This document shows positions 25,176 through 60,800 of a DNA stretch of 64,000 bases, piece by piece. Each line of letters begins with the position of its first letter. Within the stretch, counting starts at the first letter, position 1. The stretch lies in contig JASMHZ010000002.1 in NCBI GenBank assembly GCA_030750465.1, forward strand, positions 1,948 to 65,947, written 5' to 3'. The stretch is from Candidatus Peribacteraceae bacterium (GTDB taxonomy: Bacteria > Patescibacteriota > Gracilibacteria > Peribacterales > Peribacteraceae). Both the position numbers and the translations under genes were made by a program. The notes below the pieces were generated by a model, which ran no database searches, was not told where the DNA came from, and saw only the letters and a program-made list of their open reading frames with translations.

Positions 25176-25210
25176 GAGTGAATAGTGAATAGTTAATAGT
25201 GAATAGTATT
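25176..25210. repeat. solo GAATAGT-family arm
   Basis: GAATAGTGAATAGTTAATAGTGAATAGT is 28 nt identical to the reverse complement of the arm at 21552-21583. No partner arm is nearby. Confidence 0.75.
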
Positions 25211-28590: not shown

Positions 28591-28594
28591 GGGT

Positions 28595-30755: not shown

Positions 30756-30832
30756 GGGCCAGTAGCTCAGTTGGTTAGAGCACCGGACTTATAAACCGGC
30801 GGTCGGTGGTTCAAATCCACCCTGGCCCACCA
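30756..30832 (+). tRNA. tRNA-Ile (anticodon TAT), CCA encoded
   Basis: Acceptor stem GGGCCAG/CTGGCCC, anticodon loop CTTATAA, T-loop TTCAAAT. There is an A31-A39 mismatch at the base of the anticodon stem. Confidence 0.8.
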
Positions 30833-36500: not shown

Positions 36501-36704
36501 ATACACGTGTATTGTATCAGAATAGCATCAAAATCTTAGTAACAAAGTAGAAGAACCCAAAATGCAAGATGCCAAGAGGACAAGGAAAAACCAAAATTAT
36601 AATAAATTAAGGCTTGTTATATTGAATAATGTTTTTGAGATTTCCTTGAATTCTTGAGGCCTTGACATTTCTTATTTTGTAGCCAAATTGTAAGGTAAAC
36701 ATAC

Positions 36705-38550: not shown

Positions 38551-38577
38551 AAATGTCCATTAATTGTTATTTTAGCT

Positions 38578-38734
38578 ACCAAACACGCCCTAAAGGGCTT
38601 TTAACACGCTCATCCGCCCGAGGAGGCGGATTCGCTTTCAACAATCAACAATGACAAATGTGGAGAGCGAAGAAGCGTGCCTGCCGCGCCGTAGCCCGCA
38701 GGCGAAGGATGGTTGATTGTTGATTGTCGATTTG
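38578..38734. repeat. CAATCAACA-scaffold composite hairpin element, copy 4
   Basis: AACACG-CCC TAAA GGG-CTTTTAACACG-...ATCCGCC/GGCGGAT...-CTTTCAACAATCAACAAT, and at the far end an inverted GGTTGATTGTTGATTGTCGAT. Confidence 0.7.
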
Positions 38735-39363: not shown

Positions 39364-39514
39364 TCTGAACCATGATTAATCCATTATTTACATAAATGAG
39401 AGCAGGTCTTCCCTGTGGTGAGCTTGTCGAATCCAGACCTGCGATGTATTGACATGTTATAATCGCACGTCGAAGACGTGCTCTTCGTGTAGGTAAAAAT
39501 CACAAGGTTCAGAC
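39363..39514. mobile_element. MITE-like element, copy 2 (152 bp), filling the gap between two stop codons
   Basis: TIRs GTCTGAACCATG and CAAGGTTCAGAC, with the same internal hairpins as copy 1. The first base is the G of TAG (39361-39363). The last 6 nt are the Val codon and TGA of rpsP. Confidence 0.75.
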
Positions 39515-43648: not shown

Positions 43649-43805
43649 ATAAAAGAAGGAAAGAACTAAAGAAAGAAAGGAAGATTAAAAAGAGGAAAAG
43701 AATTGAAGAAAGAAGGAAAGAATGAAAGCTTTTTTCTTTAATAATCTTTTTCCTTAAATCTTTTATCTTTCTTTTTCTCTTTTATTCTTTCTATCTTTCA
43801 TTCTT
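43649..43805. repeat. purine-arm/pyrimidine-arm hairpin element R1
   Basis: An A/G-only arm, centre AAAGCTTTT, then a T/C-only arm. 43708-43789 is the exact reverse complement of 49029-49110. It lies between convergent stop codons. Confidence 0.8.
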
Positions 43806-44690
43806 TTACCCCGCCCTTTCCCCCCACTTCAATTTCTTCCTAAGCGTCGCAAAGAATGTGTCCTGTTTTCGCCTGAGGAATTTTACCGTATTTGGATGGA
43901 CATGCGCCTCGACCTTGTCTCCGCCTTCCAGTTCGACATAAACTTGTCCGTCAATTGTTAAAACAACATCCGCGTCCTGGTATTTATTTGGTTTAGTATC
44001 TACAACAACTTCTACTTTAGATTCACCAGGGATAACTATGGGTTTTTGGCTAAAGCTATATGGATTAAGAGGCGTTAAGATGGTTGCGTTGATAGTTGGA
44101 TATACAAGAGGTCCTCCTGCTGCAAGAGAATAGGCTGTGGATCCTGTCGGCGTTGAAATAATCAGACCATCGGCATGATAGCTTGCCAATTCTTCTCCGT
44201 TTACAGTTGTTTTTAAATTAACAAGCCTGGCGATGGTGCCTTGATTGATAACAGCTTCATTTAAAGCATGCCCTTCCAAAAGCACTTTGCCGTTCCTTCT
44301 TGCTTTCACGTGCAGAAGTCCGCGCTCTTCTATGACTCCACTGCCATTTAAAAGCTTTGGAATTAATTCTTCAGCTTCATCTACGTTAATCTCAGCCAAA
44401 AAACCTACAGTTCCCCAATTAACACTTAAGATTGGTATATCAAAGTCTTTCAGTTCTCTCACTGATCTAAGTATGGTTCCGTCTCCGCCTATGACTATTA
44501 GAAGATCGATATCTTCGATAGCCTTCATCTTCATTAAATCCTTAGAGCATTTAAGATGGCTTAATCTTTCGGAGTCCACGCAAATATCAACATCAAGTTT
44601 CTTTAAAATATCGATAACTCCTGCAACGGCTTCTTCTTTCTGGTCGAGTCGCGATTTAGCTGTAATGCCTATATGCTTATATTTAATCAT
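43806..44690 (-). CDS. nadK: NAD kinase
   Basis: GGDGT motif (VIGGDGTILRS), NEAVI, and DGLIISTPTGSTAYSLAAGGP. Confidence 0.93.
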   Translation of the reverse strand: MIKYKHIGITAKSRLDQKEEAVAGVIDILKKLDVDICVDSERLSHLKCSKDLMKMKAIEDIDLLIVIGGDGTILRSVRELKDFDIPILSVNWGTVGFLAEINVDEAEELIPKLLNGSGVIEERGLLHVKARRNGKVLLEGHALNEAVINQGTIARLVNLKTTVNGEELASYHADGLIISTPTGSTAYSLAAGGPLVYPTINATILTPLNPYSFSQKPIVIPGESKVEVVVDTKPNKYQDADVVLTIDGQVYVELEGGDKVEAHVHPNTVKFLRRKQDTFFATLRKKLKWGERAG

Positions 44691-44699
44691 CTATTTCGA

Positions 44700-45746
44700 T
44701 TATATAGCATCTAAAAACAAATCTACCGTTCTTTTCCATGAAAATTTCTCGGATTGCACGGGGCCTTCTTCATGCAATCTGGATCTGAGGGATTCATCCG
44801 ATAAAATCTTCTCCAAGCCATTTTTTATTGATTCTACATCAAGAGGATTTACAACAACCGCACAATTACCAGCAACTTCGGTGAGGCTTCCCATATCTGA
44901 ACAAAGCACCGGTACACCCATTTTTTCTGCATCGAGTATTTGAAGTCCAAAACCTTCGTAAAGAGAGGGGAGTGCCAGTACAGTACAAGTTCTTAAAAGT
45001 TCATGATATTTATCTTCCTTTACATATCCGATCCAATTAACGTCGTTTGTAAGTTGGGCTTCTTTAATTATTTTTTTGTCATTCCAGCCTCTCCCTCCGG
45101 CAAGTACTAATTTGTATTTTGACTTAAGTGCGTCAGGTAATTTCTGGTATGCCTTTATTAGTCTAAGTTGATTTTTGCGTGGTGATAAAGTTCCAACGCA
45201 AAGAATAATTCTTTCATCAGCAGAGTTTCCAGACGTTTTTACGTTAGACGGGCCTGCGAATATTGCTGTAGTTTTATTGGAAGCAAATGGATACTTTTTA
45301 ACTAAATCATTGCGGGTATTATCGCTATTTGTCATGACTCTGTGTGCAGACTTAATCGCCTTATTAAGCAATAGTCTTTCAATCATTTTTGCTTTTATAT
45401 CATGCTTGCCTTTTTGAAATGCAATAAGATCGTGAATAATGGGGATAGTTTTAATACTTTTATTGACTAGGCTTGGGACTATAAAACTTGTTGGGCTGAT
45501 ATAAATTGAATCGAACAGGTTCTTCTTTAAATAGCCAGATACTCTTAAATGCCACGAGAATCCGCCCGGGTAAATAATCACTTCACTTGATGAGCCTTCC
45601 CATTCTTTTGGCAGATTCTGATCTGTGAGGAGTACTATTTTATGTTCTCTATTTAGGAACTCATTTACAAATCCATAGGTCCATTGCCCTTTTCCAGTTC
45701 TTTTCTTTCTGCAGGCCTCTCTGACATCTATCGAAAATACCGCCAT
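44700..45746 (-). CDS. glycosyltransferase family 1
   Basis: YHELLRTCTVLALPSLYEGFGLQILDAEKMGVPVLCSD. ATG at 45746; TTG at 45776 in the ORF track. Confidence 0.85.
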   Translation of the reverse strand: MAVFSIDVREACRKKRTGKGQWTYGFVNEFLNREHKIVLLTDQNLPKEWEGSSSEVIIYPGGFSWHLRVSGYLKKNLFDSIYISPTSFIVPSLVNKSIKTIPIIHDLIAFQKGKHDIKAKMIERLLLNKAIKSAHRVMTNSDNTRNDLVKKYPFASNKTTAIFAGPSNVKTSGNSADERIILCVGTLSPRKNQLRLIKAYQKLPDALKSKYKLVLAGGRGWNDKKIIKEAQLTNDVNWIGYVKEDKYHELLRTCTVLALPSLYEGFGLQILDAEKMGVPVLCSDMGSLTEVAGNCAVVVNPLDVESIKNGLEKILSDESLRSRLHEEGPVQSEKFSWKRTVDLFLDAI

Positions 45747-45784
45747 GGACAAATTATAGCTTAGTCTTGTAAACAATCTTAATT

Positions 45785-46381
45785 ATGTGCTACATTCCCA
45801 TTATGGTACCCAGAATGTTGCGCCGTTTCGGTTCATTGGACCTTGAGGAAAAGATAATAAACTCAGCTGCATTTATTGCCGTTATAGCCGTGTTTTGCCC
45901 TTGGGCTAGCGGTTATCTTTTGGGAAGTGATCCAGTTTCCTACTCCGGGCTTGGGTTTTATACATCGTTTATTGGCGCATCTGTACTACTCATAAATGTG
46001 TATATTCTTTCCCTTACAGTAGTTCCTCTTACAGGAGGCCCAATAATACTTAAAAAGCGAAAGAAAGATAATGTAAGGCTTGCATGCAGTGCTGTATCAA
46101 CCATTTTGATACTTTCGGCTTTGTCGGTTCTAATGAGGATTACATTCCAGTTTTCGAGAATGGAAATTCGATTTGGGATTAATACAGCTCTAATAGCCAG
46201 TATGGTTGTTACGTTTTATGCATTTTTGAGAGTTCAAGAACAAAAGAAATCAGAAGTTGAAGAGATTTTCCAAAATCCAACAAGAAACGATTTATCCGAG
46301 AGGGTAGATCAAATAAAGGAGAAAGTTTTAGCTCCAGCTCCGCCGGAACCGGAAGAGCACAGACTCTCCAGGAATATATGA
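45785..46381 (+). CDS. hypothetical 4-TM membrane protein
   Basis: Hydrophobic segments. Its stop overlaps the next start (ATGA). Confidence 0.5.
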   Translation: MCYIPIMVPRMLRRFGSLDLEEKIINSAAFIAVIAVFCPWASGYLLGSDPVSYSGLGFYTSFIGASVLLINVYILSLTVVPLTGGPIILKKRKKDNVRLACSAVSTILILSALSVLMRITFQFSRMEIRFGINTALIASMVVTFYAFLRVQEQKKSEVEEIFQNPTRNDLSERVDQIKEKVLAPAPPEPEEHRLSRNI

Positions 46382-46677
46382 CGCAGTATAACGACGATGA
46401 TTTGGTTTATGTTGATCCTCAGAAACGAGAGGTTATTAGCTTGGTAAAGTGGGATAAGGATGGAAATGCTGTAAAGCTAGAAAAAGAAGAAGTTGAAGAA
46501 AAGCAGGAGGACGGAAATAAAAAAAGGGGAAAGAAATATAAAAGTTATTATCCGTGGGGCACATATAAAACCATGAAGAAGATTCATAAGATTGAAGGGA
46601 AAGCAAAAGAAGATTCAGCGAATCAACCATTTGATGAGGCGTTCACAAAAGCTACAAAAGAGGCGTTTTGGGATTAA
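46378..46677 (+). CDS. hypothetical K/E-rich protein
   Basis: 99-aa ORF with a start translationally coupled to the upstream gene. Confidence 0.45.
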   Translation: MTQYNDDDLVYVDPQKREVISLVKWDKDGNAVKLEKEEVEEKQEDGNKKRGKKYKSYYPWGTYKTMKKIHKIEGKAKEDSANQPFDEAFTKATKEAFWD

Positions 46678-46810
46678 TATAAAAGAACGAAAGAAAGAAA
46701 TGCTTCAAGAGAAAAAGGAAGATTAAAATGAAAAATGTTTTATCTTCTGATTTTTTTATCTTTGGGCTTCCTTTCGTTCTTTCATTCTTTCGCTCTTTCG
46801 TTCTTTATTT
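46678..46810. repeat. purine-arm/pyrimidine-arm hairpin element R2
   Basis: Same architecture as R1. Its reverse complement aligns with R3 over ~120 nt, with the first 33 nt exact. Confidence 0.8.
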
Positions 46811-46838
46811 ACTATCATTCAACAATTCAGCCATTCAT

Positions 46839-47801
46839 TCATTTATTCAATAGTGAACACACTCTCTCGACCTCATTCCTAGACCCAATTATTATTGGTG
46901 TTCTTTGATGAAGGTCAGTTATTTCTATATCTAATATTGCTTTAGTGCCGTCAGATGAAGCGCCTCCGGCCTGTTCCATCAAATATGAAAGCGGACCACA
47001 CTCAAATACCAACCTAAGCTTTCCTTCAGGATATTTACTCCCTGTAGGATATGTAAACACACCTTGGCCTTTGGAAAAAATATGACTTACATCTGCAGTC
47101 ATACAGCCTGAGTATCTAATTGTCATTTTTCTTTCGAACCAGTCTTCCAGTACTTTTCTATAGGGCTTATATTCCAATATATCTCTTACATTTCCAGGAC
47201 TATAATTCTTTGCGTCATCTGCAATTCCAATATTTTCCCTGTATAAGATAAATTCTCCTACATCGTTAAGTAGAAACTCGTGAACGCCACTTCCAGATGA
47301 ATAAACCAATGTTGTTCGTGGGCCGTATAAAATATAGATAGCTGATACCAAATCTCTTGATGTTTTCCCAATTACATCTTTGCCTTCGAATATACCAATG
47401 ATTGAACCGAGTGCAAAATTTGCATCAACTAATGATGATCCATCAAGGGGATCAAATACAACGCTGTAGGGAGCATCATCTGTAATTGCTACAATTTCCT
47501 TCTGCTCTTCTGATGAATAACAGCATACCAAATCACTTTCACATAAATGTTGCTCAAAGATAGTATTGCTTAATACATCTAGCTTGAGTTGTTCTTCTCC
47601 GGATTCGTTTGTTCCACCAGACAGGCCAGCTTCCGATGTTTGAATAGCATAACTGATGTATTTTGCCGCCCTTGATAAGTCTAAAATTAAATGCCTAAGA
47701 TTATGAGGAATAGAAGCCTTATTAAATAGATGGTAGTTGAGAGAGACGCGCTCGGGGACTTTGCAGTTTGAATCCATAAATTTATTGAGCTGTAAGAACA
47801 T
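46839..47801 (-). CDS. fbp: fructose-1,6-bisphosphatase class 1
   Basis: GEEQLKLDVLSN, DPLDGSS, and GGASSDG near the C-terminus. Confidence 0.9.
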   Translation of the reverse strand: MFLQLNKFMDSNCKVPERVSLNYHLFNKASIPHNLRHLILDLSRAAKYISYAIQTSEAGLSGGTNESGEEQLKLDVLSNTIFEQHLCESDLVCCYSSEEQKEIVAITDDAPYSVVFDPLDGSSLVDANFALGSIIGIFEGKDVIGKTSRDLVSAIYILYGPRTTLVYSSGSGVHEFLLNDVGEFILYRENIGIADDAKNYSPGNVRDILEYKPYRKVLEDWFERKMTIRYSGCMTADVSHIFSKGQGVFTYPTGSKYPEGKLRLVFECGPLSYLMEQAGGASSDGTKAILDIEITDLHQRTPIIIGSRNEVERVCSLLNK

Positions 47802-47817
47802 GATGATAATACCAGAT

Positions 47818-47936
47818 AATAAAGAACGAAAGAGCGAAAGAATGAAAGAATGAAAGGAAATCTAAAAGATCAAAAGATTAAAGCATTTTTCCTTTCAATC
47901 TTCCTTTTTCTCTTGATACATTTCTTTCTTTCGTTC
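47818..47936. repeat. purine-arm/pyrimidine-arm hairpin element R3
   Basis: An inverted copy of R2 on the other side of fbp. Confidence 0.8.
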
Positions 47937-48956
47937 TTATACCATCATTTCATTTATTTCAACCACCATTTCCGTAACTCTCATCGCGTATCCCCATTCG
48001 TTGTCATACCAGCTGAGGATTTGAGCAGCTTTCCCGTCAACAACTTTGGTTGAAAGGGCATCTACAATTGATGAATGGGGGTTTGTCTGGAAATCTATTG
48101 ATACACATTCATCGTCAGAATAATCCAATACCTCAACCATAGGACCGCTCTGGGAAGCGCTTTTTAGAAGTGAGTTAATTTCTTCGGTTGAAGTATTATT
48201 TTTAAGGAAAAATGCCATGTATGCGCAACTGACTGTTGGCACTGGTACTCGAAATGCCATACCATCGATCTTCCCTTTCAGATGCGGAAATATATCTGCA
48301 CATGCTTTCACTGCTCCGGTTTTTGTAGGAATTATTGAAAGTGTGGCAGCTCTGGTTCTCCTTAGATCGCCTTCCTTATTATTATTGTCCAGAAGATTTT
48401 GCGAAGCTGTAAATGCGTGAACGGAATTCACGAGCAGATTTTCTATTTCAAATGTTTCATCAATAACTTTGATCACTGGAGCTATGCAGTTAGTAGTGCA
48501 AGATGCATTAGATACAATTTCCATGTCGGGTTTAATTTCTTTGTGATTAACTCCTTTAACAAATGTCGGAGTATCATCTTTCATCGGAGCTGTGACAATT
48601 ACTCTCTTTGCACCGGCAAGAAGATGACCGTTTGCAAGTTCCCTCGTTCTAAATTTGCCTGTAGCTTCAACAACAATATCGACATCCAATTCTTTCCACG
48701 GGCATTTAGATGGATCTTTTTCTTTAACAACTCGCACAGTTTTTCCATTAACAATTATATTATTCTCATCTTTGACGGATATTTCTCCTTTAAATTTTCT
48801 ATGTAGAGAATCATATTTAAGAAGATAAGCTCTCATTTCGGAAGATGTAGATGCATTTATTCCTACAACCTGCACACTATCTCCAAACCTATCTTCGAAT
48901 TGTCTGTGTACATTTCTTCCTATACGGCCGTAGCCGTTAATTGCAACATTAATCAT
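47937..48956 (-). CDS. gap: glyceraldehyde-3-phosphate dehydrogenase, type I (paralog 2)
   Basis: INGYGRIGRN, the catalytic SNASCTTNCIAP, and WYDNEWGYA. Confidence 0.93.
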   Translation of the reverse strand: MINVAINGYGRIGRNVHRQFEDRFGDSVQVVGINASTSSEMRAYLLKYDSLHRKFKGEISVKDENNIIVNGKTVRVVKEKDPSKCPWKELDVDIVVEATGKFRTRELANGHLLAGAKRVIVTAPMKDDTPTFVKGVNHKEIKPDMEIVSNASCTTNCIAPVIKVIDETFEIENLLVNSVHAFTASQNLLDNNNKEGDLRRTRAATLSIIPTKTGAVKACADIFPHLKGKIDGMAFRVPVPTVSCAYMAFFLKNNTSTEEINSLLKSASQSGPMVEVLDYSDDECVSIDFQTNPHSSIVDALSTKVVDGKAAQILSWYDNEWGYAMRVTEMVVEINEMMV

Positions 48957-49007
48957 GTCCTAATAATATGACTTATTGAGTGTAGTGCAAGTAAGGGAAG
49001 TTAACAT

Positions 49008-49152
49008 TATAAAAGAAGGGAAGAAGGGAAGAATAAAAGAGAAAAAGAAAGATAAAAGATTTAAGGAAAAAGATTATTAAAGAAAAAAGCTTTCATTCTT
49101 TCCTTCTTTCGTTCTTTTATTCTTTCTTCAGTTCTTTCCTTCTTTCGTTCTT
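49008..49152. repeat. purine-arm/pyrimidine-arm hairpin element R4
   Basis: Contains the 82-nt exact inverted match to R1. Confidence 0.8.
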
Positions 49153-50214
49153 TTAACCAAATAGCCCTATGACCAATCCTAAAAATGCTACAAATCCTCC
49201 AATTATCCAAAATCGCATTGTAACTTTACTCTCCCCCCATTCCAAAGCTTCAAAATGATGGTGGATTGGAGCTGCTTTAAACACTTTCTTTCCTCCTCTG
49301 AATTTTTTACTTGTTAGTTGAATAATCACAGAAAGCATTTCTATAACAAATATAAATCCGATAAAAGGCAGTACCAATACGTTATCAGTCATCATAGCGA
49401 TCACCCCCAGAGTTCCCCCAAGAGCCAGAGAACCGGTATCACCCATGAAGAAAAGTGCAGGAGGCACATTGTGCCAAAGGAAGGCAGCTACTGCTCCGCT
49501 ACATGCTGCACAGAAAGCGGCAAGTACGGCGAGTCCGCTTAGATAAGCCAAAAGACTGAAGGCACCAAATGCTATGACAAGAAGTCCGCCAGCCAAACCA
49601 TCAAGTCCGTCGGTTACATTGACCGCATTTGCTGTGCCAATAATGATGAATATAAATATTGGTATGTACCAAATTCCGACCGTCATATCTCCAACGTATG
49701 GGATGTGAATCTGGTTGTAGTCCAGCTTGAAGTAAAACCAAAAGGCTCCAACAATACTAATTGTAAGAAGAGTGATAATTTTTGGAAGCCAATCAAGACC
49801 ACGCTTTTTCCCAGATCCAATTATGTTTAAATAATCATCAACTCCACCAAGGGCTGCAAATGCAATTAGTGTGAATAATGGAAGGTAAACTTGGCCCCTT
49901 TGCAGAAGAGAATGATCAACAAGTCCGAAATAAGAAAGTATTCTGGAAAATATAATTGTAAGAAGAATTGATCCCCATATAAGAATACCTCCCATTGTAG
50001 GAGTTCCTTTCTTATGCTGATGAAACTTTCTAAAGACTGATGCTTCTCTTCCGTCGACAGTTTCTATTCTTAATTGTTTTCCAAGCTTGTTTCTTCTTAA
50101 GAAAGAAATAAACGGAGGAGTGAGTACAAGACCAGCAATAAATGCAAAGAATGCATAACCTAATATTGCTGACAGAGGAATCTCAGGGCGTATTGGAATG
50201 AATGGGTCGATCAT
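49153..50214 (-). CDS. mraY: phospho-N-acetylmuramoyl-pentapeptide transferase MraY
   Basis: KKGTPTMGGILI and NAVNVTDGLDGLAGG, with 10 TM helices. Confidence 0.95.
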   Translation of the reverse strand: MIDPFIPIRPEIPLSAILGYAFFAFIAGLVLTPPFISFLRRNKLGKQLRIETVDGREASVFRKFHQHKKGTPTMGGILIWGSILLTIIFSRILSYFGLVDHSLLQRGQVYLPLFTLIAFAALGGVDDYLNIIGSGKKRGLDWLPKIITLLTISIVGAFWFYFKLDYNQIHIPYVGDMTVGIWYIPIFIFIIIGTANAVNVTDGLDGLAGGLLVIAFGAFSLLAYLSGLAVLAAFCAACSGAVAAFLWHNVPPALFFMGDTGSLALGGTLGVIAMMTDNVLVLPFIGFIFVIEMLSVIIQLTSKKFRGGKKVFKAAPIHHHFEALEWGESKVTMRFWIIGGFVAFLGLVIGLFG

Positions 50215-50217
50215 GGC

Positions 50218-50388
50218 TGAAGAATAGTAAAAAGAAGGAAAGAAGGGAAGAGTAAAAAGAAAGAATAAAAGATAGAAAGAAGGGAAGGAAGATTAAAAAG
50301 AAAAAAATGCTTTAATTCTTTCTCTCTTTCCTTCTTCCTTTCTTTCTTCAGTTCTTTCTCTCTTTTTAAGTATTTCTTTCCGCCGTTC
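50218..50388. repeat. purine-arm/pyrimidine-arm hairpin element R5
   Basis: The same architecture, with centre GAAGATTAAAAAGAAAAAAATGCTTTAATTC. Confidence 0.75.
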
Positions 50389-50389
50389 T

Positions 50390-51751
50390 TTACGAATGTG
50401 CTTTATCGATATCAAAGAATTTCATTTGTTCTTTTTTAAACATTAGCTCAACGCGTCCTATCGGTCCATTTCGATGTTTTCTGATGTATATGTCTGCCAA
50501 ACCGGGCCTGTCCGAATCTTCTTCATAATAGTCTTCCCTGTACATCATCAGGACAACATCTGCATCCTGCTCGATAGATCCTGAATCTCGTAAATCCGAC
50601 AACAAAGGAATGTTGCCCGGTCTGCTTTCTACTGCTCTGGAAAGCTGAGAGAGAGCTAAGCAGGGGATATGCAGTTCTCTTGCAAGTTGCTTAAGAGAAC
50701 GGGAGATTTCTGATATCTCCTGTACTCGGTTACCGGCGTAATTGGCATTTCCAGTACTCATAAGCTGTAGATAGTCGACTATAAGCAAATCCAGGCCGTG
50801 TTCCATTTGAAGTCTGCGGGCTTTCGCACGCAGTTCTGGCATAGATGATATTACGGAGTCATCTATATATATGTTTGCTTTGTTTAGCTCATCCATAATC
50901 GGTCCCATATTCTGGAAGTCACTATCTTCAAGCTTCCCCCTCTGTAGTTTCCATGAATCTACACCCAGCATTGATGCAAATAGTCTGTCTACTAGTTGTT
51001 CCTTGCTCATTTCAAGCGAGAATATTCCGATGTGCTTGCCATGCCTAATAGCTGCATTTTGTGCAATATTAAGTGCAAGGCTTGTTTTGCCCATGCTAGG
51101 CCTTGCTGCAATAATTATCAGGTCGCTTGGATGAAGACCTGAGAGTTTTTGATCAAGAGTTTGAAATCCAGTTGAGACTCCTTTTACCATTTCTTCGTCA
51201 TCTGTTTCGTGGAGTTCTGCAAAGCGTTCATATCTCTGTTCCAGAACATCTCTAATATGCATGAATTTCTCTTTTAAAAACGTATTAGTTATTTGGAATA
51301 TAGTTTTTTCAACTTCTTCCAATATTTCCGGGATTGGCCTTCCTTCTTCGTATCCAACTCCTGTTATTTTTTGCCCTGCTTCAATAATTCTCCTGTGAAC
51401 TGCCTTTGTTTTTACAATTTGGCCGTATTGATAGATGTGTGATGAGGTTGGAACTTCATCAGCAAGCTGTGCCAAAAAAGCACTGCCTCCGATATCTTTA
51501 ATTTTCTTGTTATCTTTTAATTTCGTGGAAACAGTAACAAAATCAATTGGCTCATGCTCCTGATATAAGGCGAATACAGCAAGATATATGTCTTTGAGTA
51601 CCGGATCATAGAAATCTTCCGGCCTTAAAAAATCTGAAACCTTTATGATTGCATCAGGATCCATTAAAAGAGCTCCTATGACTGTCCTCTCCACTTCTAA
51701 TGAGTGAGGTTGTGTTAACGATGCGGCAGTGGATTGGTTGCTGGCAGGCAT
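50390..51751 (-). CDS. dnaB: replicative DNA helicase DnaB
   Basis: PHSLEVERTVIGALLMD N-terminal domain, Walker A AARPSMGKTSLALNIA, and LIVDYLQLM. Confidence 0.95.
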   Translation of the reverse strand: MPASNQSTAASLTQPHSLEVERTVIGALLMDPDAIIKVSDFLRPEDFYDPVLKDIYLAVFALYQEHEPIDFVTVSTKLKDNKKIKDIGGSAFLAQLADEVPTSSHIYQYGQIVKTKAVHRRIIEAGQKITGVGYEEGRPIPEILEEVEKTIFQITNTFLKEKFMHIRDVLEQRYERFAELHETDDEEMVKGVSTGFQTLDQKLSGLHPSDLIIIAARPSMGKTSLALNIAQNAAIRHGKHIGIFSLEMSKEQLVDRLFASMLGVDSWKLQRGKLEDSDFQNMGPIMDELNKANIYIDDSVISSMPELRAKARRLQMEHGLDLLIVDYLQLMSTGNANYAGNRVQEISEISRSLKQLARELHIPCLALSQLSRAVESRPGNIPLLSDLRDSGSIEQDADVVLMMYREDYYEEDSDRPGLADIYIRKHRNGPIGRVELMFKKEQMKFFDIDKAHS

Positions 51752-51850
51752 GCGGGCTTAGAATTCTATTACTATTAGAGAATCTGGCAAATAATTGATG
51801 TTGCAACAGATTGCGATTACTGTCGGCTGTGAGGATTAGATGTGGAAAAG

Positions 51851-52003
51851 ATCTGAATCTTGATTTAGCTCTCACACGGAGAGCAGGTCTTCGACCTGCG
51901 ATGTTGTTGATAGAAATCGCACGTCGAAGACGTGCTCTCAATCATGTTAATCTTTTAATAATGCCTGTCCTGAGCTAGTCGAAGGGTGAATCTTGTTTCA
52001 GAC
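51851..52003. mobile_element. MITE-like element, copy 3 (~153 bp, diverged)
   Basis: Ends ATCTGAATCTTGAT and ATCTTGTTTCAGAC, with hairpins GCAGGTCTTCGACCTGC and GCACGTCGAAGACGTGC. The last 6 nt are the Val codon and TGA of recA. Confidence 0.65.
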
Positions 52004-53098
52004 TGCAATTGTCATAATCTTCTTTTCAAGCTCCTGAGCAAGCTTCTTATCATCAATCAGTGTCTGTCTAGCCTGTTCCCGCCCTTGCCCCAGAGTATTT
52101 TCGCCGGTCTTAAAGTATGCTCCTGACCTCTCAATTAATCCATATTTAACTCCCAAATCTATGATATCTCCTTCCTTGCTTATTCCTTGTGCGTAAAGAA
52201 TATCAAATTCTGCCTGTTTGAATGGGGGGGCAATCTTGTTTTTAACGATCTTTGCGCGTGTTCTGTTTCCAACTACTTCCTGCCTGTCGGCCGTAGCCTT
52301 GGCGGAGGCTGGCATTTTACTCGTTTTATCGTCAGAATTTGCCGTGGATGGTGCTTTCTCCAATATTTTATCAATTCTTCTTACGTCGATTCGCACAGAC
52401 GAATAGAACTTAAGGGCATTGCCTCCTGTTGTAGTCTCGGGATTTCCAAACATTACTCCTATCTTCATTCTTAGCTGATTTATGAATATAACAGTACAGC
52501 TTGTTTTGCTGACTATAGATGTAAGTTTTCTGAGTGCCTGACTCATTAGTCTCGCCTGAAGCCCCATATGGCTGTCTCCCATCATTCCTTCGATTTCTGC
52601 TCTTGGAGTAAGGGCTGCAACAGAGTCGATAACTATAATGTCTATTCCTCCCGACCTGACAAGAGTCTCTGTAATTTCCAAGGCCTGTTCTCCATCATCT
52701 GGTTGAGATACCAAAAGGCTATCTACATCAACTCCTATCTTTCGGGCATATTGAGCATCAAGTGCATGCTCAGCATCGATGAATGCTGCTTTGCCTCCGG
52801 CTCTTTGTCTTTCCGCTATTGCATGCAAGGCGAGAGTTGTTTTACCGGATGACTCCGGTCCGTATATTTCGACAATGCGTCCTCCGGGAAGCCCTCCTCC
52901 CAATGCAATATCCAGCGATAGGGATCCTGATGGATACCTTTGAATATCAATTATATTATCTTTGTTCATTTCCATGATTGCACCGACTCCGTATTGCTTT
53001 TCTATACTAGCGAGAGCAGCAGTTACAGAGTCTAGCTTTGCATCATGTGGAATTGAGTTTATTTTTTGTTGTGGAGTTTTTCTTGTTGTCTTTGGCAT
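51998..53098 (-). CDS. recA: recombinase RecA (with a ~24-aa insertion)
   Basis: [22 protein letters not shown] and [10 protein letters not shown] take the start at MPKTTRK (53098). The ORF-track extension to 53191 is unlikely. Confidence 0.93.
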
Positions 53099-53242
53099 TG
53101 GATAGGGGAGTAAATGCTTGCACTGAGCAAGTCGAAGTGTAAAGAATAATATATAGGTGATTGAACGTACACCATAGTAAATGGTCTGCAATCTTTATCA
53201 AGAAGTAGGGGTTGATGGTTTGTTTGTCTGTTGTATAATGGT

Positions 53243-53306
53243 AAAGAAAGAAAGAGAGAAAGAAGGAAAGAAAAAAAGAACTAAAGAAGGGAAGATGAGA
53301 AGATTA
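53243..53306. repeat. R6a: purine arm of a split hairpin element
   Basis: An A/G-only arm ending GAAGATTAA, the same centre-proximal word as in R1, R2 and R5. It abuts the stop codon of the four-helix-bundle gene. Confidence 0.7.
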
Positions 53307-53666
53307 ATCACGAGTAAGTTTGTCGACCATCGAACATAGTATGTAAAACAATTCTTTCGCCTCATTCAATAGATAATCTCTCTCCTTATTTAGGATTATA
53401 TTTCTACCAGTATCGATTAACTCCAGCCAATGAGTACTTTCCTTTGCTTCTTTCTTTGATATTTTCATATACTTTATTCCATCTTTTTTACTTAGACCTT
53501 CGCCTGCTTCTATATAGTTTGCTCCTATTGAGCCGGACGAACGAACTAATTGTTTTGAGTATTCATTATTTGAAACAGAATATGGTAATTTATTAACAAA
53601 ATCTCTAACGTCTTTGCCAAAATTTCTTGACCTTAATCCAAAAGAGAAAACTTTTATTTTGTTCAT
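53304..53666 (-). CDS. four-helix-bundle protein (23S rRNA intervening-sequence protein family)
   Basis: QLVRSSGSIGANYIEAGEGLSKKDGIKYMKISKKEAKESTHWLELI. I take the start at MNKIK (53666). The ORF-track N-terminal extension is a translation of the repeat arm. Confidence 0.85.
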   Translation of the reverse strand: MNKIKVFSFGLRSRNFGKDVRDFVNKLPYSVSNNEYSKQLVRSSGSIGANYIEAGEGLSKKDGIKYMKISKKEAKESTHWLELIDTGRNIILNKERDYLLNEAKELFYILCSMVDKLTRD

Positions 53667-53689
53667 AGGGTGGATGATCCTACACCTTA

Positions 53690-53751
53690 ATATAAAAGAT
53701 AAAAAGAAAATTCCTTCTTTCTTCAGTTCTTCCTCTCTTTCTTTCTTTTTA
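53690..53751. repeat. R6b: pyrimidine arm of the split hairpin element
   Basis: ttccttctttcttcagttcttcctctctttctttcttttt is complementary in kind to R6a. The word cttcagttct also occurs in R4 and R5. Confidence 0.7.
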
Positions 53752-53776
53752 TCCACTATGCTATCATCCATTCATT

Positions 53777-54718
53777 ATGAAAAGACTAATCCTAATTTCT
53801 CTTGCAGGACTTCTTGTTACTGCGTGCGGACCAAAGCCCCAACAAGCCGAAATCACTTTTCTTGGAATCTCCAGCGGTACACTAAAAACTCCGTTAAACG
53901 AGCTCGCTTTCAAGGACAGATTTGGCGTTGACGAAAAGAAATTGGTTGCGGTTGTCGCTTTTGGAGAGAGCGTCGATGAAACGAATGTGCAGGCAACATG
54001 GTTTTCTCCTGACGACAGAAGGATGCCATTGGGAAGAAAATCAATCACTATGGAATCCGGTGCAACTATTGCTAGGTTCAGTTTTGCTACAAACGATGAA
54101 TGGCAAAAGTCTCCATTCATGTTGGATATACGTACAAAGACAGGAGAAGGGGAGGAGGCAAAGAGCTCCAGCGGGCAACTTCATTTCTTTGTCGGATTGG
54201 AAGAGAAACGAATTGTTGCATACAACGATGAATACAGTGCATACAAGGATCATGAGGCAGAAAAGAGGAAGATGTATACAATAAAAAAGGAGAAGGAAGA
54301 AAGTGCACGTGATAAGGTCAGGTTAAGGTTGAATGCTTCGGTTGCAGATATTGGACATAGGTATGATGTAAACGGTGATGGGGAAGAGGAGCTTATTATT
54401 ATCGATCCCCCGACCGATGAACCGTTTATGGGTGCGACTGAAACTGGAGCCGTGTTCTCTGCGGATGTTAAGAAGTTCTCGATTACAAATCTAAGCGGTT
54501 CTACGGTATTGGAAACTCGTGAGGAAACCGGCGAAGTTATTATTCATGGAGTTCAGGGGCCGCTTGCGACAAGCTTTAAGAAAGGCAAAGAAATTCACTT
54601 CGTCTTATATCCTGATTCGGTAACTATTGAGTGGGGTGAAGACGATTCGGTGTGCAAGCAGATATTTAAGTTTGATAAAGAATGGGTAGATGAAGGCGAG
54701 GGGGTTGTGTGTGAATAG
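53777..54718 (+). CDS. hypothetical lipoprotein
   Basis: Lipobox LLVTAC after MKRLILISLAG. No domain recognised. Confidence 0.6.
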   Translation: MKRLILISLAGLLVTACGPKPQQAEITFLGISSGTLKTPLNELAFKDRFGVDEKKLVAVVAFGESVDETNVQATWFSPDDRRMPLGRKSITMESGATIARFSFATNDEWQKSPFMLDIRTKTGEGEEAKSSSGQLHFFVGLEEKRIVAYNDEYSAYKDHEAEKRKMYTIKKEKEESARDKVRLRLNASVADIGHRYDVNGDGEEELIIIDPPTDEPFMGATETGAVFSADVKKFSITNLSGSTVLETREETGEVIIHGVQGPLATSFKKGKEIHFVLYPDSVTIEWGEDDSVCKQIFKFDKEWVDEGEGVVCE

Positions 54719-54720
54719 AT

Positions 54721-54879
54721 ATGGAAAGAACGGAAGAAAGAAAGACTAGAAAGAGAAAAAGGAAGTGGGAAAGAACGAAAGAATAGAAGCTTTTTTTGCT
54801 TAAAATCTTCTTCCTTTATCCTTCCTTTCGATCTTTCTCTCTTTCCTTCTTCCTCTCTTTCATTCTTTCGTTCTTTTAT
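54721..54879. repeat. purine-arm/pyrimidine-arm hairpin element R7
   Basis: The same architecture, with centre AGAAGCTTTTTTTGCTT, lying between convergent stop codons. Confidence 0.75.
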
Positions 54880-57800
54880 TTATATGTCTCTCCACCTTCG
54901 ACGCCACATCATCCACCACCACTCGACATTAACTGCTGCAAGTAATAGTGCGATCAGCCAGAACATCCAGTGAATGCCTCGTCCTCCGTTGACCTTGTCG
55001 TACAGAGGATCGTTTACAATTACGTGGATTGACGGAAGTGTTACGTCAATAACATCAATTCTCTCTTCTTCTATAAGTGTTGGAGGCTCAAGAATAAATG
55101 TTCTCTTTTCGACTTGTTGTCCGCTCTTATGAATTTCAATAACGTGTGCGCCAACTTCTACCTTGTGGAACGTAGCCATTCCTTCATCGTTTGTAATCGC
55201 AACCTTTGGAGTAGAGAAGAGCACAACCGGAGTTCTTCTGTATGGATTACCCATATCTGTAAATACTCCAATATTAAGCGAAGCAAGTAATGTTTGGTTG
55301 TTCTCCCTTACAATCTGCGTCTTGAAGTGTCTTGGTTCCGGAATAGGTTTGGAATGATCCTTAAGGTACTCTCTCGCTTTCCATGCGAGCGCATTAGTAT
55401 TTTCTGCGGTTCTCTTTCCGTAGAATTCAATTGATTCCTTTGTGATCAAAACGGTGTCCGTAACTTCATCGGAAACAGCAACACTAACTCTGGATACGGC
55501 CTTTAGTCCTTTTTCTGATGCGTCGGTTGCAATTATCAACGAATCTTTGAATTGGCCTGCAATTTGCTTTGTATTCTGGAGTGTCTTGCTTGCCAATAGA
55601 ACTCCGGCGTCTTTGGTGACTTCGATGCTCTTGTCTGCGAATGTAATGCCAAGTTCTTTCACGCTGTCGCTTGCGATCTTGGTTGTCAGATCTTCTTTGG
55701 TATCAATATATTTTGCGATTCTCTTAGCTTGGTCGGATGCAGCAAACAGAATTGCCTTTGTACTTTCCTGAGCTACTTTGGTTGCAAGTCCTGCCTCTGT
55801 ATCTACGAAGTCGCTGATTCTATTTACTGTATTTACACCCTTTGCCATCTGAGTACCAGCATATTTGGCTGAGTGTACCAAGTTATCCTGTAGTACTTTG
55901 GCAGTACCTACCACTACAACTCCATATTTTCCTAGCTTTTCTGATGCAAATAGAATTGCCGCATCTTTTCTATAAGCAGCCCTATCAATTACATCATTTG
56001 CCTGATCCTTTGCAAATCCAAATAGAATTCTCTTTGCGAGCTGATCGCCCTTGGAATCAAGTTCAGACTTCTTAAGAGCAACCCTCCTGTCTCTTGCAAT
56101 CTTATCTGTTGCGATCTGGTAATTGCCTGCAATATTGACTCCGGCATCTCTGAATGCGTCTGCAACTCTGCCAACGGCATTCTTGACTCCGCCGAATGCT
56201 ATCTGCGTTGTACCACTGATATTTTCTTCAGCACCCCTAAACGATTCTGCGATTCTATCCGATCCTTCCTTGAGCTTACCAAATGCTAATTGTGATGTGC
56301 CAGCAATATTCTCACCTGCTCCCCTGAACGCTGTAGCTGTTCTCTTCGCAAGCTGATCTATTGCTTTCCTGGCTATTCTACTAACAGGTTTTACGAATGG
56401 CATTATCTTGACCGATGGAATCGCAGGATTGAATATCATGCTGACTGCATGATCAGGCATTTCCCTGATTCTTCGCTCAGCATCTCTGATCCTTTGTTCC
56501 TTGGTTGCCTCAGCACTCTCTCGTCTCTCCTCACGCCTCTTAGCAAGATCAATTACTGCCTCATGCCTTGGTGTCACTGTCGGTCTCCTATCTTCTGCAT
56601 CTTCTGATTCCTCTGCTTCCTCCGGAGATGAAGCGTGAACCTGAACAATAGTTATTTCTCTATTTGCAACATCCACACCTCCGCCTATATTCGTTCCTTC
56701 ACCGCGATGAGAGCCGGTGTCCCCGCTGCTTGTAGTTGTGTCGGCAGCTGCAGTTCTGCTGTATCGGAAGTCCACCGTTTCCGATGATCCTGCAGTAGTA
56801 ACAGTAAATGATGCGCTGTTTGCATCACGCGCCGTGTATCCGGATGGGGGATCGATGGCTATCACATATGAACCGCTAGAAATGTTCAGGCCGCTAATGG
56901 AATATATTCCCTCGCTGTTTGTCGTACCAGAAGCGCTTACTGCTCCTCCTGTCGCGCTGGTTCCGATAACAGATATTTCTCTGCCAGGGAAGTAAGACTC
57001 GCCGACGTCGTAAGTACTGTCATTATCCGCATCTTCGTAAGCGCGTCCCGTGACTGTTGATTCATCAATGTAACCAAATTCAAGTGTAATTGCACTTCCT
57101 GTACCCACAACAATACTTCCAGAGGTGGAGTAAGTTGTGGATATATAATCAGACGGAATAATGCCGGCACTATCGGTCAACAGTAAACTGTATCCCGACA
57201 GTGAGCTCAAGGCGGCACCGCTGAACGCGAAAGTGCCGACAAAGTCCGTCTGCGTAGTTAGGGCGAGAGTTGCCCCCGTTGTTGTCGTTCCCGACAACCG
57301 GAGACTCACCCCCGAGAATGCATCACTCTCCCCGGCGTCGTGTACGCCGTCACCGTCTGTATCTGTCCAAACTTTTCCGTTAATGGCACCTGTGCCTGTC
57401 CTGTACTTCATTAAGAATGTACCGGAAGGCATATGGGTACCTGTCCCCATTGCGTTTTGATTTTGATTTGAGAGCGTTACCGAGTGTGAAGCACCCTTAG
57501 TAACACTTATAGTGTAATTACCGCTGCTTGCAGGCACTTCGTAGAAGCTGAATGCGCCTGTTGATGTTGAAGCAGCGGTAAGGCTCAAGCTGGCTCCCGT
57601 AACTGTGGAACCTGTAAGCGTTACCGTCGCTCCAATAATTGCATTTGTATCACCGGCATCCTCGACTCCATCTCCATCTTCATCCCAGAATACAACTCCA
57701 CTCATTGTTCCATACCAGCTGTATCCGTAGTTGATTGTAATTGTTGATCCGGTTTCTACAATATTTCCACCTGAGCTTGTGAAGTTCGTATTCCTGTATC

Positions 57801-60800
57801 CCGCAGAAACCGTAGCGCCGCTTACAGAAACCGTGTAACCCGTAGAATCGCTTCTGTAAACCGGTGTGAGTGTGTATGAACCGGACGTAGAAGCAGTAGA
57901 TCCTGTAATCGTAAGGGCGGCTCCGGTGATTGTATTTCCTGTCAATTCTATAACAACACTCGTCAGGCCTGATGTTTCCCCGGCATCTTTAACGCCGTCA
58001 TAATCCTTGTCGTACCAAACGTTACCAAGTATATCTCCGGTTCCTGTGAAGTAACCAAACAGCCAGTTTGTATTGTTATCACTATCAGTTGATCCGCTTG
58101 GCGTAAGAAGAGAACCTCCGGTTGCATCATTATCGGTTACATCCAAGAGTTGCAGATCCTGAGTTCCCGCGCTTGCGTCCAGAATTAGCTTAGACGCACT
58201 ACCGGACTTGGTTGTAGTAAGAGTAAGTAAGTTGGCTGATGCTCCCTTAAGCGTAAGCGCTCCAGAAACTGACTGTCTTGAGGTGTAATCGAACTTCAAA
58301 GTATCATTCGAACTTCCCGTTGAAGTTAAGTTCCAGAACACAGTTGATCCGCTTATTGTCTGATCACTTCCATCAAAGTTAACTGTTCCACCTCCATCAT
58401 GAGTAAAGTCTCCCATATTTAACCAGTTACCTGACATTGTGATTGATCCTGAGCTGACCAAATTACCGGTGTAGTTCTTTAAGTCTCCTGCGATGTCGAG
58501 TGATGCTCCAAGTGTGTAGTATCCTGAACCGGTTGATGGATTACCCGAATTGAGGTTAGCTACCTCAGAAGCGCTAAGGGCTCTGTTGTAGATTCGTACG
58601 TCGTCGATGAGGCCGTTGAATGGCCTGAACTGACCGTCCGTGCTATCTCTTCCAATGCTCAGAACAGAGCTGTAGTTTGTAGTAGCATCGCTATCAGTTG
58701 TGTTTGCGACGGATGTTGCATCCCTATACATGTTCCACGAGCTTCCGTTTCGCACAAGGGCAACGTGGAACCAGGTATTTTGGGTGTATGCAGATGCATC
58801 GTTTTCCCCAAAGTTTACAACAAATCCAGTGTTATAATCCCAGAAATTCAATCCTGGAACCCCTTGAGATGAATCTCGCCAGAGGAATTCCCACAGGTGA
58901 TCGTTGTCCGGTCCATGTGAAACGATTGCATGTTGAGCATTTATATCTTCTATACTGATCCATGAGCTGATGCTGAAGTTTTGACTGCCAAAATCCCATA
59001 AGTCACTGTCAGAGACACTTACATAATCATCCGTCCCATCAAAATCAAGAGCGTACGCATTGTAGAAGTTGGTTGTTCCGGTTCCTGCGGATATATCAAC
59101 CCAATCTTCTGCATCCATATTCGTAAGCGTTCCATCATTACTATTCGCACTTGAATCTCTTGCATTCGTCCCCGCGCCTTCGTCGAATTTCCAATATCCA
59201 ACTAAGCCGTTATCAAGAGTGATGTTATTGAATGTACTTCCGGACAAAGTCTTTGAGTCCCCATTATCAACAGTTCCATCAAGTAACAGAGTTCCCGTTC
59301 CTGCTGTAAATGATCCGTTTTCAGCTTCTATCCAGCTCCCGGAAAGCGTAATTGTTTGTCCGTTTGTGGTAACAAGCGTTCCTCCGGTAATTGTAAGGTC
59401 TCCTGCAATTCCAACGTTTCCTCCAATATGGAATGAAGTGTCGGATGCTCCTGCGAGATTTACATTGTTGTAATTCTCACCCGGCAAGTATCTGGTTCCT
59501 GTAAGGGAGGCCAGAACCACTCTTCCAGTGCCTGCGCTAAACGCCCCTCCGCCGTCTATCCATGAGCCGGAGATTGTGAGAGTTTGTGCGTTTGTTGTCT
59601 TAAGTGTTCCTCCAGTCATTGTCAGATCTCCGTTGACTTCCAGATTTGTAATTGAACCTGTAAGGTGGAACTCTGTGCCGGCGTTATTTACTCCAAGGTT
59701 GAAGTAGGTAGTGTCGATCAGTGTGCTACCACTGTCATTGGTTTGCCCTGTGTAGTTGATCGTGCTTCCTGCTCCATCAAGCTCTGTTTTAAACGTGCCA
59801 CTGATCGTATTCCCTGTGCCACCAAGGACAAGCGTTCCACTATTTGTCATTTCTGTGCCGCTTTGTACATCCAGCACTGCCCCCGTTCCTCCTGCAGTGA
59901 GCGTGACGCCGGTGCCGACGTGGAATATGGCAGCTCCCGAAAGGGTGATCGACCCGACTATCACGCCGCCGCTGTGTGATGCATGGATAAGCTTTGTCTT
60001 TGCAGTTGTCGAAGCGCCGTGATTACCGATAACGAGCTCGCCTCCACCACTCCCATCATTCGCATCCTCCAGGTACACCGTCCCCGCGGCTCCATCGTCG
60101 TTTCCTGTAGTTCCCTTCGCTTCGATCTTCACGTCACTGAAGTCCGTTCCACTCGAGAGCACGATGGCAACGCGTCCTCCTCCTCCCCCACCATATGAAG
60201 CTGCTCCCGCATTGGCAGTGATCGTCCCGGAACCGGTGAATACAGTTGTTTTGATATTGATGGATCCTCCCGCATCGCCACCGTTACTGCCTGTGAGACT
60301 AGCGGCGTTGGCAGACATTGTACCATTCACGATGACTGATCCACTTGCGCTGATGATGATGGCACCACCACCGGCTGTACCATACATGCCGCCGCTCCCG
60401 AGGTACTCTGGATTCGTCACGGAACCGTATACCGGTCCGACACCTCCAGCCGTACCGTTATCACCACCTTCTCCACCGTGCGATGCACCATTTCGATCGC
60501 TGTTGTTGCCCGTACCCCAACCTGGCCCATCTTCTGCTCCGAATCCGAATTCATTTGCAGTGAGAGTGCCACCTAACTGCACATTCAATGATGTACCGGC
60601 ATTGGTGAGAAGCAGTTTTGCCACTTTACCCTTGCCTCCGTTCTGCTGAGGATCCGCGTCCAGTTCGAGCGTGCCATCGTTCTGAATGGTGATGGAGCCA
60701 AATGTGTAGTTATTTGTTCCATCGGTACCCAGGCGAAGTGTGGTGATGCCGGTAGAAGATCCAATGACAAGATGGTTTCTACTTGTTGCATCGAAGTAGA

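Follow-up and report, generated by a model that had tools for sequence, protein, structure and literature searches.

Why are the gaps between the housekeeping genes of a marine Peribacteraceae bacterium, a member of the candidate phyla radiation (CPR), filled with long hairpin-forming repeats, and what kind of genetic element are they? The repeats are located in a 64,000-nucleotide stretch of contig JASMHZ010000002.1 (assembly GCA_030750465.1, positions 1,948–65,947) from Candidatus Peribacteraceae bacterium, which is referred to here as the window. Seven elements, named R1–R7 and 120–175 bp long, lie between 43.6 and 54.9 kb of the window. We propose that they probably constitute a lineage-specific family of hairpins resembling the intervening sequences (IVSs) of 23S rRNA, in which R6 bears a gene and R1–R5 and R7 are gene-less.

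The 23S rRNA IVS of Coxiella has a stem formed by terminal inverted repeats and an open reading frame (ORF) for an S23p four-helix-bundle (4HB) protein in the loop, and RNase III cuts in the stem (PMC4990558). Tandem heptamers precede the ORF, and their number varies between strains (PMC4990558). The function and origin of IVSs are unclear, and an old hypothesis views them as mobile elements with an ORF that aids mobility (PMC4990558). How they originate and spread, and what the small ORF does, have been open questions since about 1990 (PMC4990558).

Structure and positions of the hairpin elements

All seven elements are present where an earlier note on this DNA had placed them, with the end of R5 corrected to 50392. 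In each of them, a short mixed centre of the AAAGCTTT type is preceded by an A/G-rich arm and followed by one rich in T/C. The arms are built of tandem four- and eight-nucleotide words (AAAGAAnG), and the purine arms contain about 60–66% A and 20–32% G. The arms had been described as made of A and G only; they are A/G-rich, but their purine content is 81–95%, not 100%. Searches against Rfam gave no family match to the elements, which are located between protein-coding genes; in the window as a whole, five tRNAs were the only matches.

The six gene-less copies each follow directly after a stop codon, three of them between convergent genes and three between co-directional genes. R1 (43649–43808, forward strand; nhmmer E 6.5e-29) lies between purA on the forward strand (stop codon 43646–43648) and the NAD kinase gene on the reverse strand, whose stop codon is the TTA at the end of the element (43806–43808). 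R2 (46678–46812, forward strand; E 8e-27) is directly 3′ of the stop codon (46675–46677) of a forward-strand ORF of 99 residues, hyp99, which is convergent with the reverse-strand FBPase gene. The next three elements are on the reverse strand, as are the genes on both sides of them. R3 (47815–47939; E 8e-26) is positioned between the genes of GAPDH and FBPase and has its terminus in the GAPDH stop codon (47937–47939). R4 (49008–49155; E 1e-34) separates MraY from GAPDH and ends in the MraY stop codon (49153–49155), and R5 (50218–50392; E 2e-28) separates DnaB from MraY and ends in the DnaB stop codon (50390–50392). R7 (54721–54879, forward strand; E 4e-36) is located between hyp313 on the forward strand (stop codon 54716–54718) and a giant ORF on the reverse strand (stop codon 54880–54882).

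The observation that every copy touches a stop codon was borne out, including R6, which adjoins the stop codon of its own gene (53304–53306). In four cases, NAD kinase, GAPDH, MraY, and DnaB, the TAA stop is supplied by the terminal TAAAA/TTTTA of the element. Nearly every intergenic gap of the region is filled, as had been noted: copies are present in all but one of the eight gaps that exceed 50 nt between 43.6 and 54.9 kb, and the exception, DnaB–RecA, holds a different repeat. A scan for purine runs and an nhmmer profile found no full copy in the first 43 kb, in agreement with the earlier note. The sole candidate outside 43.6–54.9 kb is a possible degenerate relative at 36547–36665 on the forward strand (nhmmer E 6e-5, hairpin score 35 in the window scan).

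This placement brings up the possibility that the elements benefit the host where genes end, by terminating transcription in both directions, providing processing sites, or stabilising the compact operons of CPR bacteria, with the link to 4HB proteins being secondary, a small gene inserting into hairpin loops. The position of all gene-less copies directly after stop codons, in convergent as well as co-directional gaps, fits such a role. Each copy of the R1/R4/R5/R7 subfamily is oriented alike to its abutting gene, and R2 and R3 are oriented oppositely, matching the opposite orientation of their abutting genes. With only six copies, this pattern is suggestive at most, having a probability of about 1 in 16 by chance. 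The conservation of element centres between two lineages whose synonymous sites are saturated also speaks for host benefit, as does the precedent of cyanobacterial short tandemly repeated repetitive (STRR) hairpins, which have been proposed to be transcript stabilisers (PMC2670836). The evidence on the other side comes from the comparison of relatives and from structure predictions, and is given below.

Homology among the copies

The elements are a true homologous repeat family, as the earlier note had claimed, with common termini and centres and with long near-identical stretches between copies. Positions 43708–43789 of R1 are the exact reverse complement of 49029–49110 of R4 (82 of 82 nt), and the match between these sites, 5 kb apart, can be lengthened to 101 nt with 95% identity or to 143 nt with 92%. 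R2 and R3 align as reverse complements with 92% identity over 120 nt. R4 and R5 are 88% identical over 130 nt in the same orientation. A 16-nt terminal inverted repeat, T-A(3-5)-GAA-N-G-R-AAGAR, is present at 12 of the 14 ends, as is typical of miniature inverted-repeat transposable elements (MITEs). The AAAGCTTT-type apex and the motif GGAAGATTAA are common to the centres of the copies and to the hairpins of a relative, and the E-values of the nhmmer profile are 1e-26 to 1e-37. The autocorrelation of the words peaks at lags 4, 8, 12, and 16 and not at 7, which distinguishes the arms from the tandem heptamers of STRR sequences.

R6 encloses a gene for a four-helix-bundle protein

R6 had been recorded as a split copy. 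Its two arms do stand apart, but the reason had been missed: the loop contains a gene for a 4HB protein of 120 residues (53304–53666, reverse strand) belonging to the 23S rRNA IVS protein family and resembling Avd (PF05635 E 1.8e-13, TIGR02436 E 1e-19). A profile of the 4HB family matches the structure with PDB code 2RLD at E 3e-28. Downstream of the gene, the arm at 53243–53303 (reverse strand) is purine-rich on the forward strand, forms the T/C-rich 3′ arm in gene sense, and has the terminus TAAAGAAAGAAAGAG. It is 84% complementary to 53711–53748 and 84–87% complementary to the arms of R5 and R7. Upstream of the gene (53667–53752, reverse strand), the leader TTAAGGTGTAGGATCATCCACCCTATG at 53667–53689 is followed by an arm at 53690–53752, which is the A/G-rich 5′ arm in gene sense. 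The arms and termini of R6 match those of the other copies. With an S23p/PF05635 ORF in the loop, R6 has the organisation of a large IVS, and the other six copies lack an ORF, as small IVSs do.

The 4HB gene has a 68%-identical ortholog in the closest relative, on contig L011. There it is bounded by an additional purine arm and a full hairpin of this family, and the leader is conserved. The proportion of nonsynonymous differences between the two genes (pN 0.19) is far below that of synonymous differences (pS 0.90, saturated), so the cargo gene is under purifying selection. In the relative, the cassette is directly 3′ of the hyp313 ortholog (70% identical) and is followed by an ArsP permease gene and a second hairpin of the family. 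In the window, the 4HB gene is upstream of hyp313, and the gene-less R7 is downstream. Judged from this gene order, the comparison shows that the cargo gene occupies different copies of the hairpin family in the two relatives.

Public gene callers assign 155 residues to the 4HB gene (53304–53771), 35 of which are read from the purine arm. The conserved protein has 120 residues, and its start codon is the ATG at 53664–53666. Hairpin arms can inflate ORF calls in this manner.

A second 4HB cassette, also missed earlier, is located at 21145–21581 on the reverse strand of the window. It contains a gene for 117 residues (21173–21526; PF05635 E 1.3e-25, TIGR02436 E 6e-31) between (TGAATAG)n and (CTATTCA)n arrays that are inverted to each other. 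These 29-nt arms have a complementarity of 97%, and their word differs from those of R1–R7. A lone (GTGAATA)n array is present at about 25177–25210.

Hairpins flank 4HB genes in many phyla

When one genome from each species was scanned with a 4HB alignment, 80 loci were retrieved, 77 of which were scorable; the loci were chosen by two conserved peptides and are not phylogenetically independent. They belong to Planctomycetota, Patescibacteria, Desulfobacterota, Bacteroidota, Verrucomicrobiota, Omnitrophota, Chloroflexota, and other phyla. Each locus was given an inverted-repeat score, defined as the best match between the 220 nt upstream and the 220 nt downstream of the 4HB gene. The median score of the 77 loci is 36, compared to 17 for random intervals and 17 for 440 other ORF boundaries from the same loci. 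Ninety-five percent of the loci exceed the 95th percentile of the random intervals, and 90% exceed that of the real ORF boundaries. Motifs of 23S rRNA are absent from all 4HB loci surveyed, and Rfam gave no match in the 18 loci examined. Outside rRNA, 4HB genes almost always sit within such hairpins, as far as the flanks of the surveyed loci indicate.

The arms flanking 4HB genes are word-periodic, and in 47 of 50 loci the best lag is 7. In 64 of 64 loci, the A-rich arm is on the 5′ side; this polarity is identical on both strands and is found in all seven copies of the window as well. Gene-less hairpins in the same word style are found near the cassettes, for example at L059 965–1113, L061 5885–6017, and L092 226–371. 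Such gene-less hairpins share 7-mers with the arms of their own cassette in 18 of 74 cases, compared to 12 expected from the arms of other loci (p = 0.014). The same layout is present on RefSeq plasmids of cultured cyanobacteria, and the 4HB gene of Nostoc flagelliforme has an inverted (AATTCA)n array, perfect over 31 nt, at its flanks.

Two individual loci have neighbours of interest. On plasmid pANACY.01 of Anabaena cylindrica PCC 7122 (L194, 2027–4118), a 4HB gene with purine-rich arms of GTAAAA words is located between cas2 and cas1, in the opposite orientation. In a Patescibacteria-like contig (L014 41–1182; a 469-kb JGI contig of P0127), the 4HB gene adjoins the RNase III gene (rnc) and is convergent with it, which may be a coincidence.

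Turnover of the elements among assemblies and relatives

Low-complexity repeats can be produced by assembly errors, and two features of the locus could be taken as signs of this: one scaffold (L004) has an N-gap inside R3, and the length of R4 differs between assemblies. However, the locus is 99.97–100% identical over all seven elements in six independent assemblies from ENA, JGI, NCBI, and TARA, which were made by different assemblers from different samples, TARA Oceans samples among them. The elements are therefore not an assembly artefact, an explanation to which we assign a vanishingly small probability.

The length difference in R4 is due to a 36-nt unit, AAGAACGAAAGAAGGAAAGAACTGAAGAAAGAATAA on the gene strand, at 49092–49155 (reverse strand), the copy number of which differs between assemblies that are otherwise at least 99.97% identical. 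The unit is present about 1.8, 2.8, or 3.8 times, and the gap holding R4 measures 196 nt in the window and in L002, L003, and L006, 232 nt in L001, and 268 nt in L005. The expansion is confined to one arm. Within the locus, only the elements vary or break assemblies. In practical terms, such hairpins break short-read assemblies by causing N-gaps, contig ends, and variable unit counts.

In the closest relative (L007, MraY 85% identical), the gene order RecA-DnaB-MraY-GAPDH-FBPase...NADK-purA is kept, and long hairpins occupy the same gaps. Two of these hairpins, with nhmmer E-values of 1e-31 to 1e-37, are homologous to the window family, and the remaining ones use other words (CAATTGA, CGTTAATT, and GTTTTTA). 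A more distant relative (L098, 78%) has hairpins of yet other words. In another (L097, 76% MraY identity), hairpins are absent, and the genes on either side of the same junctions overlap or directly adjoin each other. The similarity among elements follows the genome and not the position: R4 is 86% identical to R1, and hairpin L007a is 87% identical to L011b, but R4 and its positional ortholog L007a are only 60% identical. Neighbouring gaps tend to share one hairpin family, which fits local copying. The likeness within genomes, the variation of the 36-nt unit, and the absence of hairpins from L097 together imply that the family is copied or homogenised within genomes and turns over quickly. Judged by these alignments, our comparison shows copying or homogenisation of the copies within the genome, and gain and loss between close relatives.

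Mobilisation by a transposase encoded elsewhere in the genome would also produce near-identical copies whose presence varies among lineages. The elements would then be MITEs, possibly with a TA or TAA target as in IS630- or Correia-type elements. Their size of 120–175 bp, the defined 16-nt inverted repeat that starts with TA, and the coincidence of the ends with TAA stop codons are all as expected of MITEs. However, no transposase or reverse transcriptase, and with it no cognate autonomous element, was found among the window ORFs scanned, and the only gene-bearing copy encodes a 4HB protein. The palindromic, low-complexity sequence extends over the entire element and is not limited to its ends, and the clustering of copies in neighbouring gaps is better explained by local copying than by random transposition. 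The element ends coincide with the TA/TAA of stop codons. A comparison of sites provided no empty site that would define a target duplication among the relatives compared, since the closest relative is filled and the next relatives are too diverged to align. Overall, we consider MITEs to be an improbable explanation.

Scans of metagenomic DNA identified no additional members of the IVS-like family. A 27-mer from the R1/R4 core gave no matches, and a degenerate 24-mer based on the centres of the window and relative elements gave 95 matches, none with purine/pyrimidine flanks, which makes them chance matches.

Predicted folding of the elements

The predicted RNA folds of the elements have energies of −34 to −60 kcal/mol. 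A duplex of about 60 bp had been proposed for each element; the arms are capable of forming hairpins, but the stems are interrupted, with 61–84% of aligned arm positions being Watson–Crick pairs. The elements are thus extended stem-loops with terminal inverted repeats and imperfect stems. Because of these imperfections, a stringent hairpin scan missed most of the copies and was recalibrated.

An A/G tract of any kind pairs fairly well with any T/C tract. When one arm was shuffled with its purine/pyrimidine composition kept, the real hairpins were better by just z = 1.3–4.8, so most of the pairing potential and folding energy is compositional. Arms of different copies pair as well as the arms within one copy, which indicates that there is no copy-specific compensation. 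The words of both arms change together between species, from GAAGGAAAG / CTTTCCTTC in the window to GATCCAAAG / CTTTGGATC in the relative.

Pairing that is mostly compositional would be expected if the elements had grown in place as simple-sequence DNA, with slippage expanding the A/G words and template switching copying one arm to the other, without mobility or function. The tandem four- and eight-nucleotide words of the arms, the differences in words among gaps and among relatives, and the copy-number variation of the 36-nt unit in one arm alone are consistent with such growth. It does not account for the termini, the GGAAGATTAA motif, and the AAAGCTTT apex that the copies share with those of the relative, for the 82 identical nucleotides at non-adjacent sites, for profile E-values of 1e-26 to 1e-37, or for the same architecture around 4HB genes across phyla. 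We give growth in place little credence.

Two structural roles suggested earlier were not supported by our results. One is that of H-DNA mirror tracts: purine and pyrimidine arms that succeed each other on a single strand make up an inverted repeat rather than a mirror repeat, the mirror scores of the purine arms equal those of shuffled arms (p 0.07–0.76), and the pure-purine runs are only 9–38 nt long. The other is that of terminator surrogates, as none of the elements has the canonical G+C stem with a T-run, and the relative with 76% MraY identity does without elements at the same junctions, where they are therefore dispensable. Thirteen terminator-like matches between 43000 and 55500 equal the shuffle expectation, and none is inside an element. 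Counts of canonical promoters do not exceed the shuffle expectation, and none is within an element.

The absence of canonical terminator features and of hairpins from the same junctions of a close relative speaks against the 3′-end function for the host introduced above. Selection on an RNA stem would favour G-U wobble pairs over A-C mismatches in the sense strand, but their counts are 23 and 20 in the window and 85 and 94 in 64 loci. Selection on the RNA stem is thus not detectable, which counts against a role of the RNA only. The clustering of elements by genome and not by position points to within-genome copying rather than vertical conservation of a function at each site, and the number of 36-nt units varies in one arm alone. 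Taken together with the position and orientation of the copies, these results make benefit to the host unlikely in our view.

Relation to known systems

The 23S rRNA IVSs with an S23p ORF, known from Coxiella, Leptospira, Xanthomonas, and Brucella, are the closest to the window family. Both have a long stem made of terminal inverted repeats, and a PF05635 ORF is in the loop of these IVSs as it is in R6. The rRNA IVSs also have ORF-less and ORF-bearing forms and strain-variable short tandem words by the ORF, and are regarded as selfish (PMC4990558). The window elements differ in being located between protein-coding genes, and not in helices 9, 25, or 45 of the rRNA; they are therefore not IVSs in the strict sense. 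Their arms are much longer (60–80 nt), homopurine or homopyrimidine, and have a period of 4/8 nt instead of 7, six gene-less copies are present within 11 kb, and excision by RNase III is proposed by analogy only. We file the window family as the purine/pyrimidine, period-4/8 form of an IVS-like hairpin element.

The cyanobacterial STRR sequences are 7-bp tandem repeats of unknown function that form intergenic hairpins (PMC2670836), and intergenic heptamer repeats occur in Beggiatoaceae, cyanobacteria, and Bacteroidetes without an evident mechanism of transmission (PMC4679880). Like the window elements, they are intergenic arrays of short words that are able to fold, with a patchy distribution suggesting horizontal spread (PMC2670836, PMC4679880). 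Other hairpin families of the window (CAATCAA, TGAATAG, and TAGCTTT) have 7-nt units, the first two judged by eye. The R1–R7 family differs from STRR sequences in its 4/8-nt words, defined termini, conserved apex, and CPR host. No report linking such hairpins to 4HB genes was found in the searchable literature, which leaves out most subscription journals and offers absence of evidence only.

Correia elements of Neisseria (Correia repeat enclosed elements, CREE) and other MITEs resemble the window elements in their length of 100–170 bp, terminal inverted repeats, and location at the ends of genes or between them. Hairpins formed by Correia transcripts are cut by RNase III. However, Correia elements are complex in sequence between their terminal repeats of 26 bp, duplicate a TA target, and exist in hundreds of dispersed copies. 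The window element is a low-complexity palindrome throughout, has no known target duplication or transposase, and encodes a 4HB protein in its gene-bearing form. Repetitive extragenic palindromic (REP) sequences and bacterial interspersed mosaic elements (BIMEs) with REP-associated tyrosine transposases (RAYTs) are likewise intergenic, palindromic, often positioned after stop codons, and grouped in species-specific families. REP sequences are 20–40 nt long, G+C-rich, and RAYT-associated, whereas the window elements have 120–175 nt and A-rich arms, and no RAYT gene is present among the window ORFs scanned; they are not of the REP/BIME type. Avd of diversity-generating retroelements is homologous to the cargo protein, and both are pentameric 4HB proteins (PMC10053308). 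Unlike the genes of Avd systems, neither 4HB gene of the window adjoins a reverse transcriptase gene or a template/variable repeat pair.

Proposed origin and spread of the elements

The IVS-like hairpin elements would belong to a class of long stems enclosing 4HB genes, which are found within 23S rRNA IVSs and at non-rRNA sites. Gene-bearing R6 and the gene-less copies would parallel the ORF-bearing and ORF-less rRNA IVSs. The elements may be selfish or near-neutral DNA that is tolerated at stop codons or in intergenic gaps. A transcribed element would fold into a long A-U/G-U stem, and from the analogy with rRNA IVSs we infer that RNase III may cleave this stem and separate the flanking RNAs. 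This kinship with stems that RNase III is known to cut (PMC4990558) lends indirect support to the RNase III substrate suggested in the earlier note. Spread and the exchange of cargo could proceed by recombination or template switching between similar arms and not by a transposase.

Several points weigh against this explanation. The folding energy of the elements is mostly compositional, and the covariation is weak, as RNAalifold gave a consensus of just −8.6 kcal/mol and one clearly covarying pair for ten copies. The sense strand has no wobble bias, and RNase III cleavage is argued by analogy alone. The period of 4/8 differs from the period 7 that is typical of 4HB arms, and the profile recognises the arms of R6 weakly (E 0.003–0.75). 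The relocation of the cargo gene is based on a single genome pair, and L007 and L011 were assigned to one genome because they share a sample and the hairpin family. Finally, causality could be reversed, with 4HB genes homing into pre-existing hairpins of the host.

More tentatively, we speculate that PF05635 4HB genes are the cargo-bearing or "autonomous" form of a pan-bacterial class of word-periodic hairpins in which the 5′ arm is always A-rich and the 3′ arm T-rich, with ORF-less rRNA IVSs, cyanobacterial STRR hairpins, and the intergenic families of CPR bacteria being derived from it as non-autonomous forms. The arms would be targeted in trans by the Avd-like 4HB pentamer, either for propagation or for the processing of RNA. 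This extension is a possibility that we rate well short of likely; if true, it would represent a type of mobile element with no recognisable transposase. In the window, a single genome has both forms of one hairpin family, with one copy bearing a gene and six lacking it, which, in combination with the survey across phyla, links rRNA IVSs to intergenic tandem-word hairpins and makes the question of their origin testable.

Other repeats and genes of the window

The window contains additional hairpin families. The intergenic CAATCAA / TTGATTG heptamer family is present at 11319–11449, 12947–13153, 28591–28726, and 38551–38723, and has short G+C-rich hairpins nested inside. A G+C-richer family of composite palindromes (GAGAGCAGGTCTTCGACCTGCGAT ... 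ATCGCACGTCGAAGACGTGCTCTC) is found at 5150–5270, 39400–39490, and 51850–51960. One copy of it fills the DnaB–RecA gap, the sole large gap of the region that lacks a purine/pyrimidine element. Additional hairpins or arrays of words are located at 26135–26226, 23585–23625, and 8270–8295; they comprise TAGCTTT / AAGCTA, in which the T-rich arm is 5′ and the polarity is therefore opposite, the palindrome CTGCCTGCCGGCAGGCAGG, and a one-armed (GTTTTTA)n.

Three observations concern the genes of the window. A tRNA-Ile with the anticodon UAU is encoded at 30756–30832; most bacteria decode AUA by a lysidine-modified CAU tRNA. Two GAPDH paralogs are present within the 64 kb, at 24120–25163 and 47937–48956. 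The giant ORF adjacent to R7 (54880–63999) encodes more than 3039 residues and runs past the end of the window; public gene calls in the same and related contigs reach 2500–3400 residues, with domains of the Laminin_G_3 and SdrD_B types.

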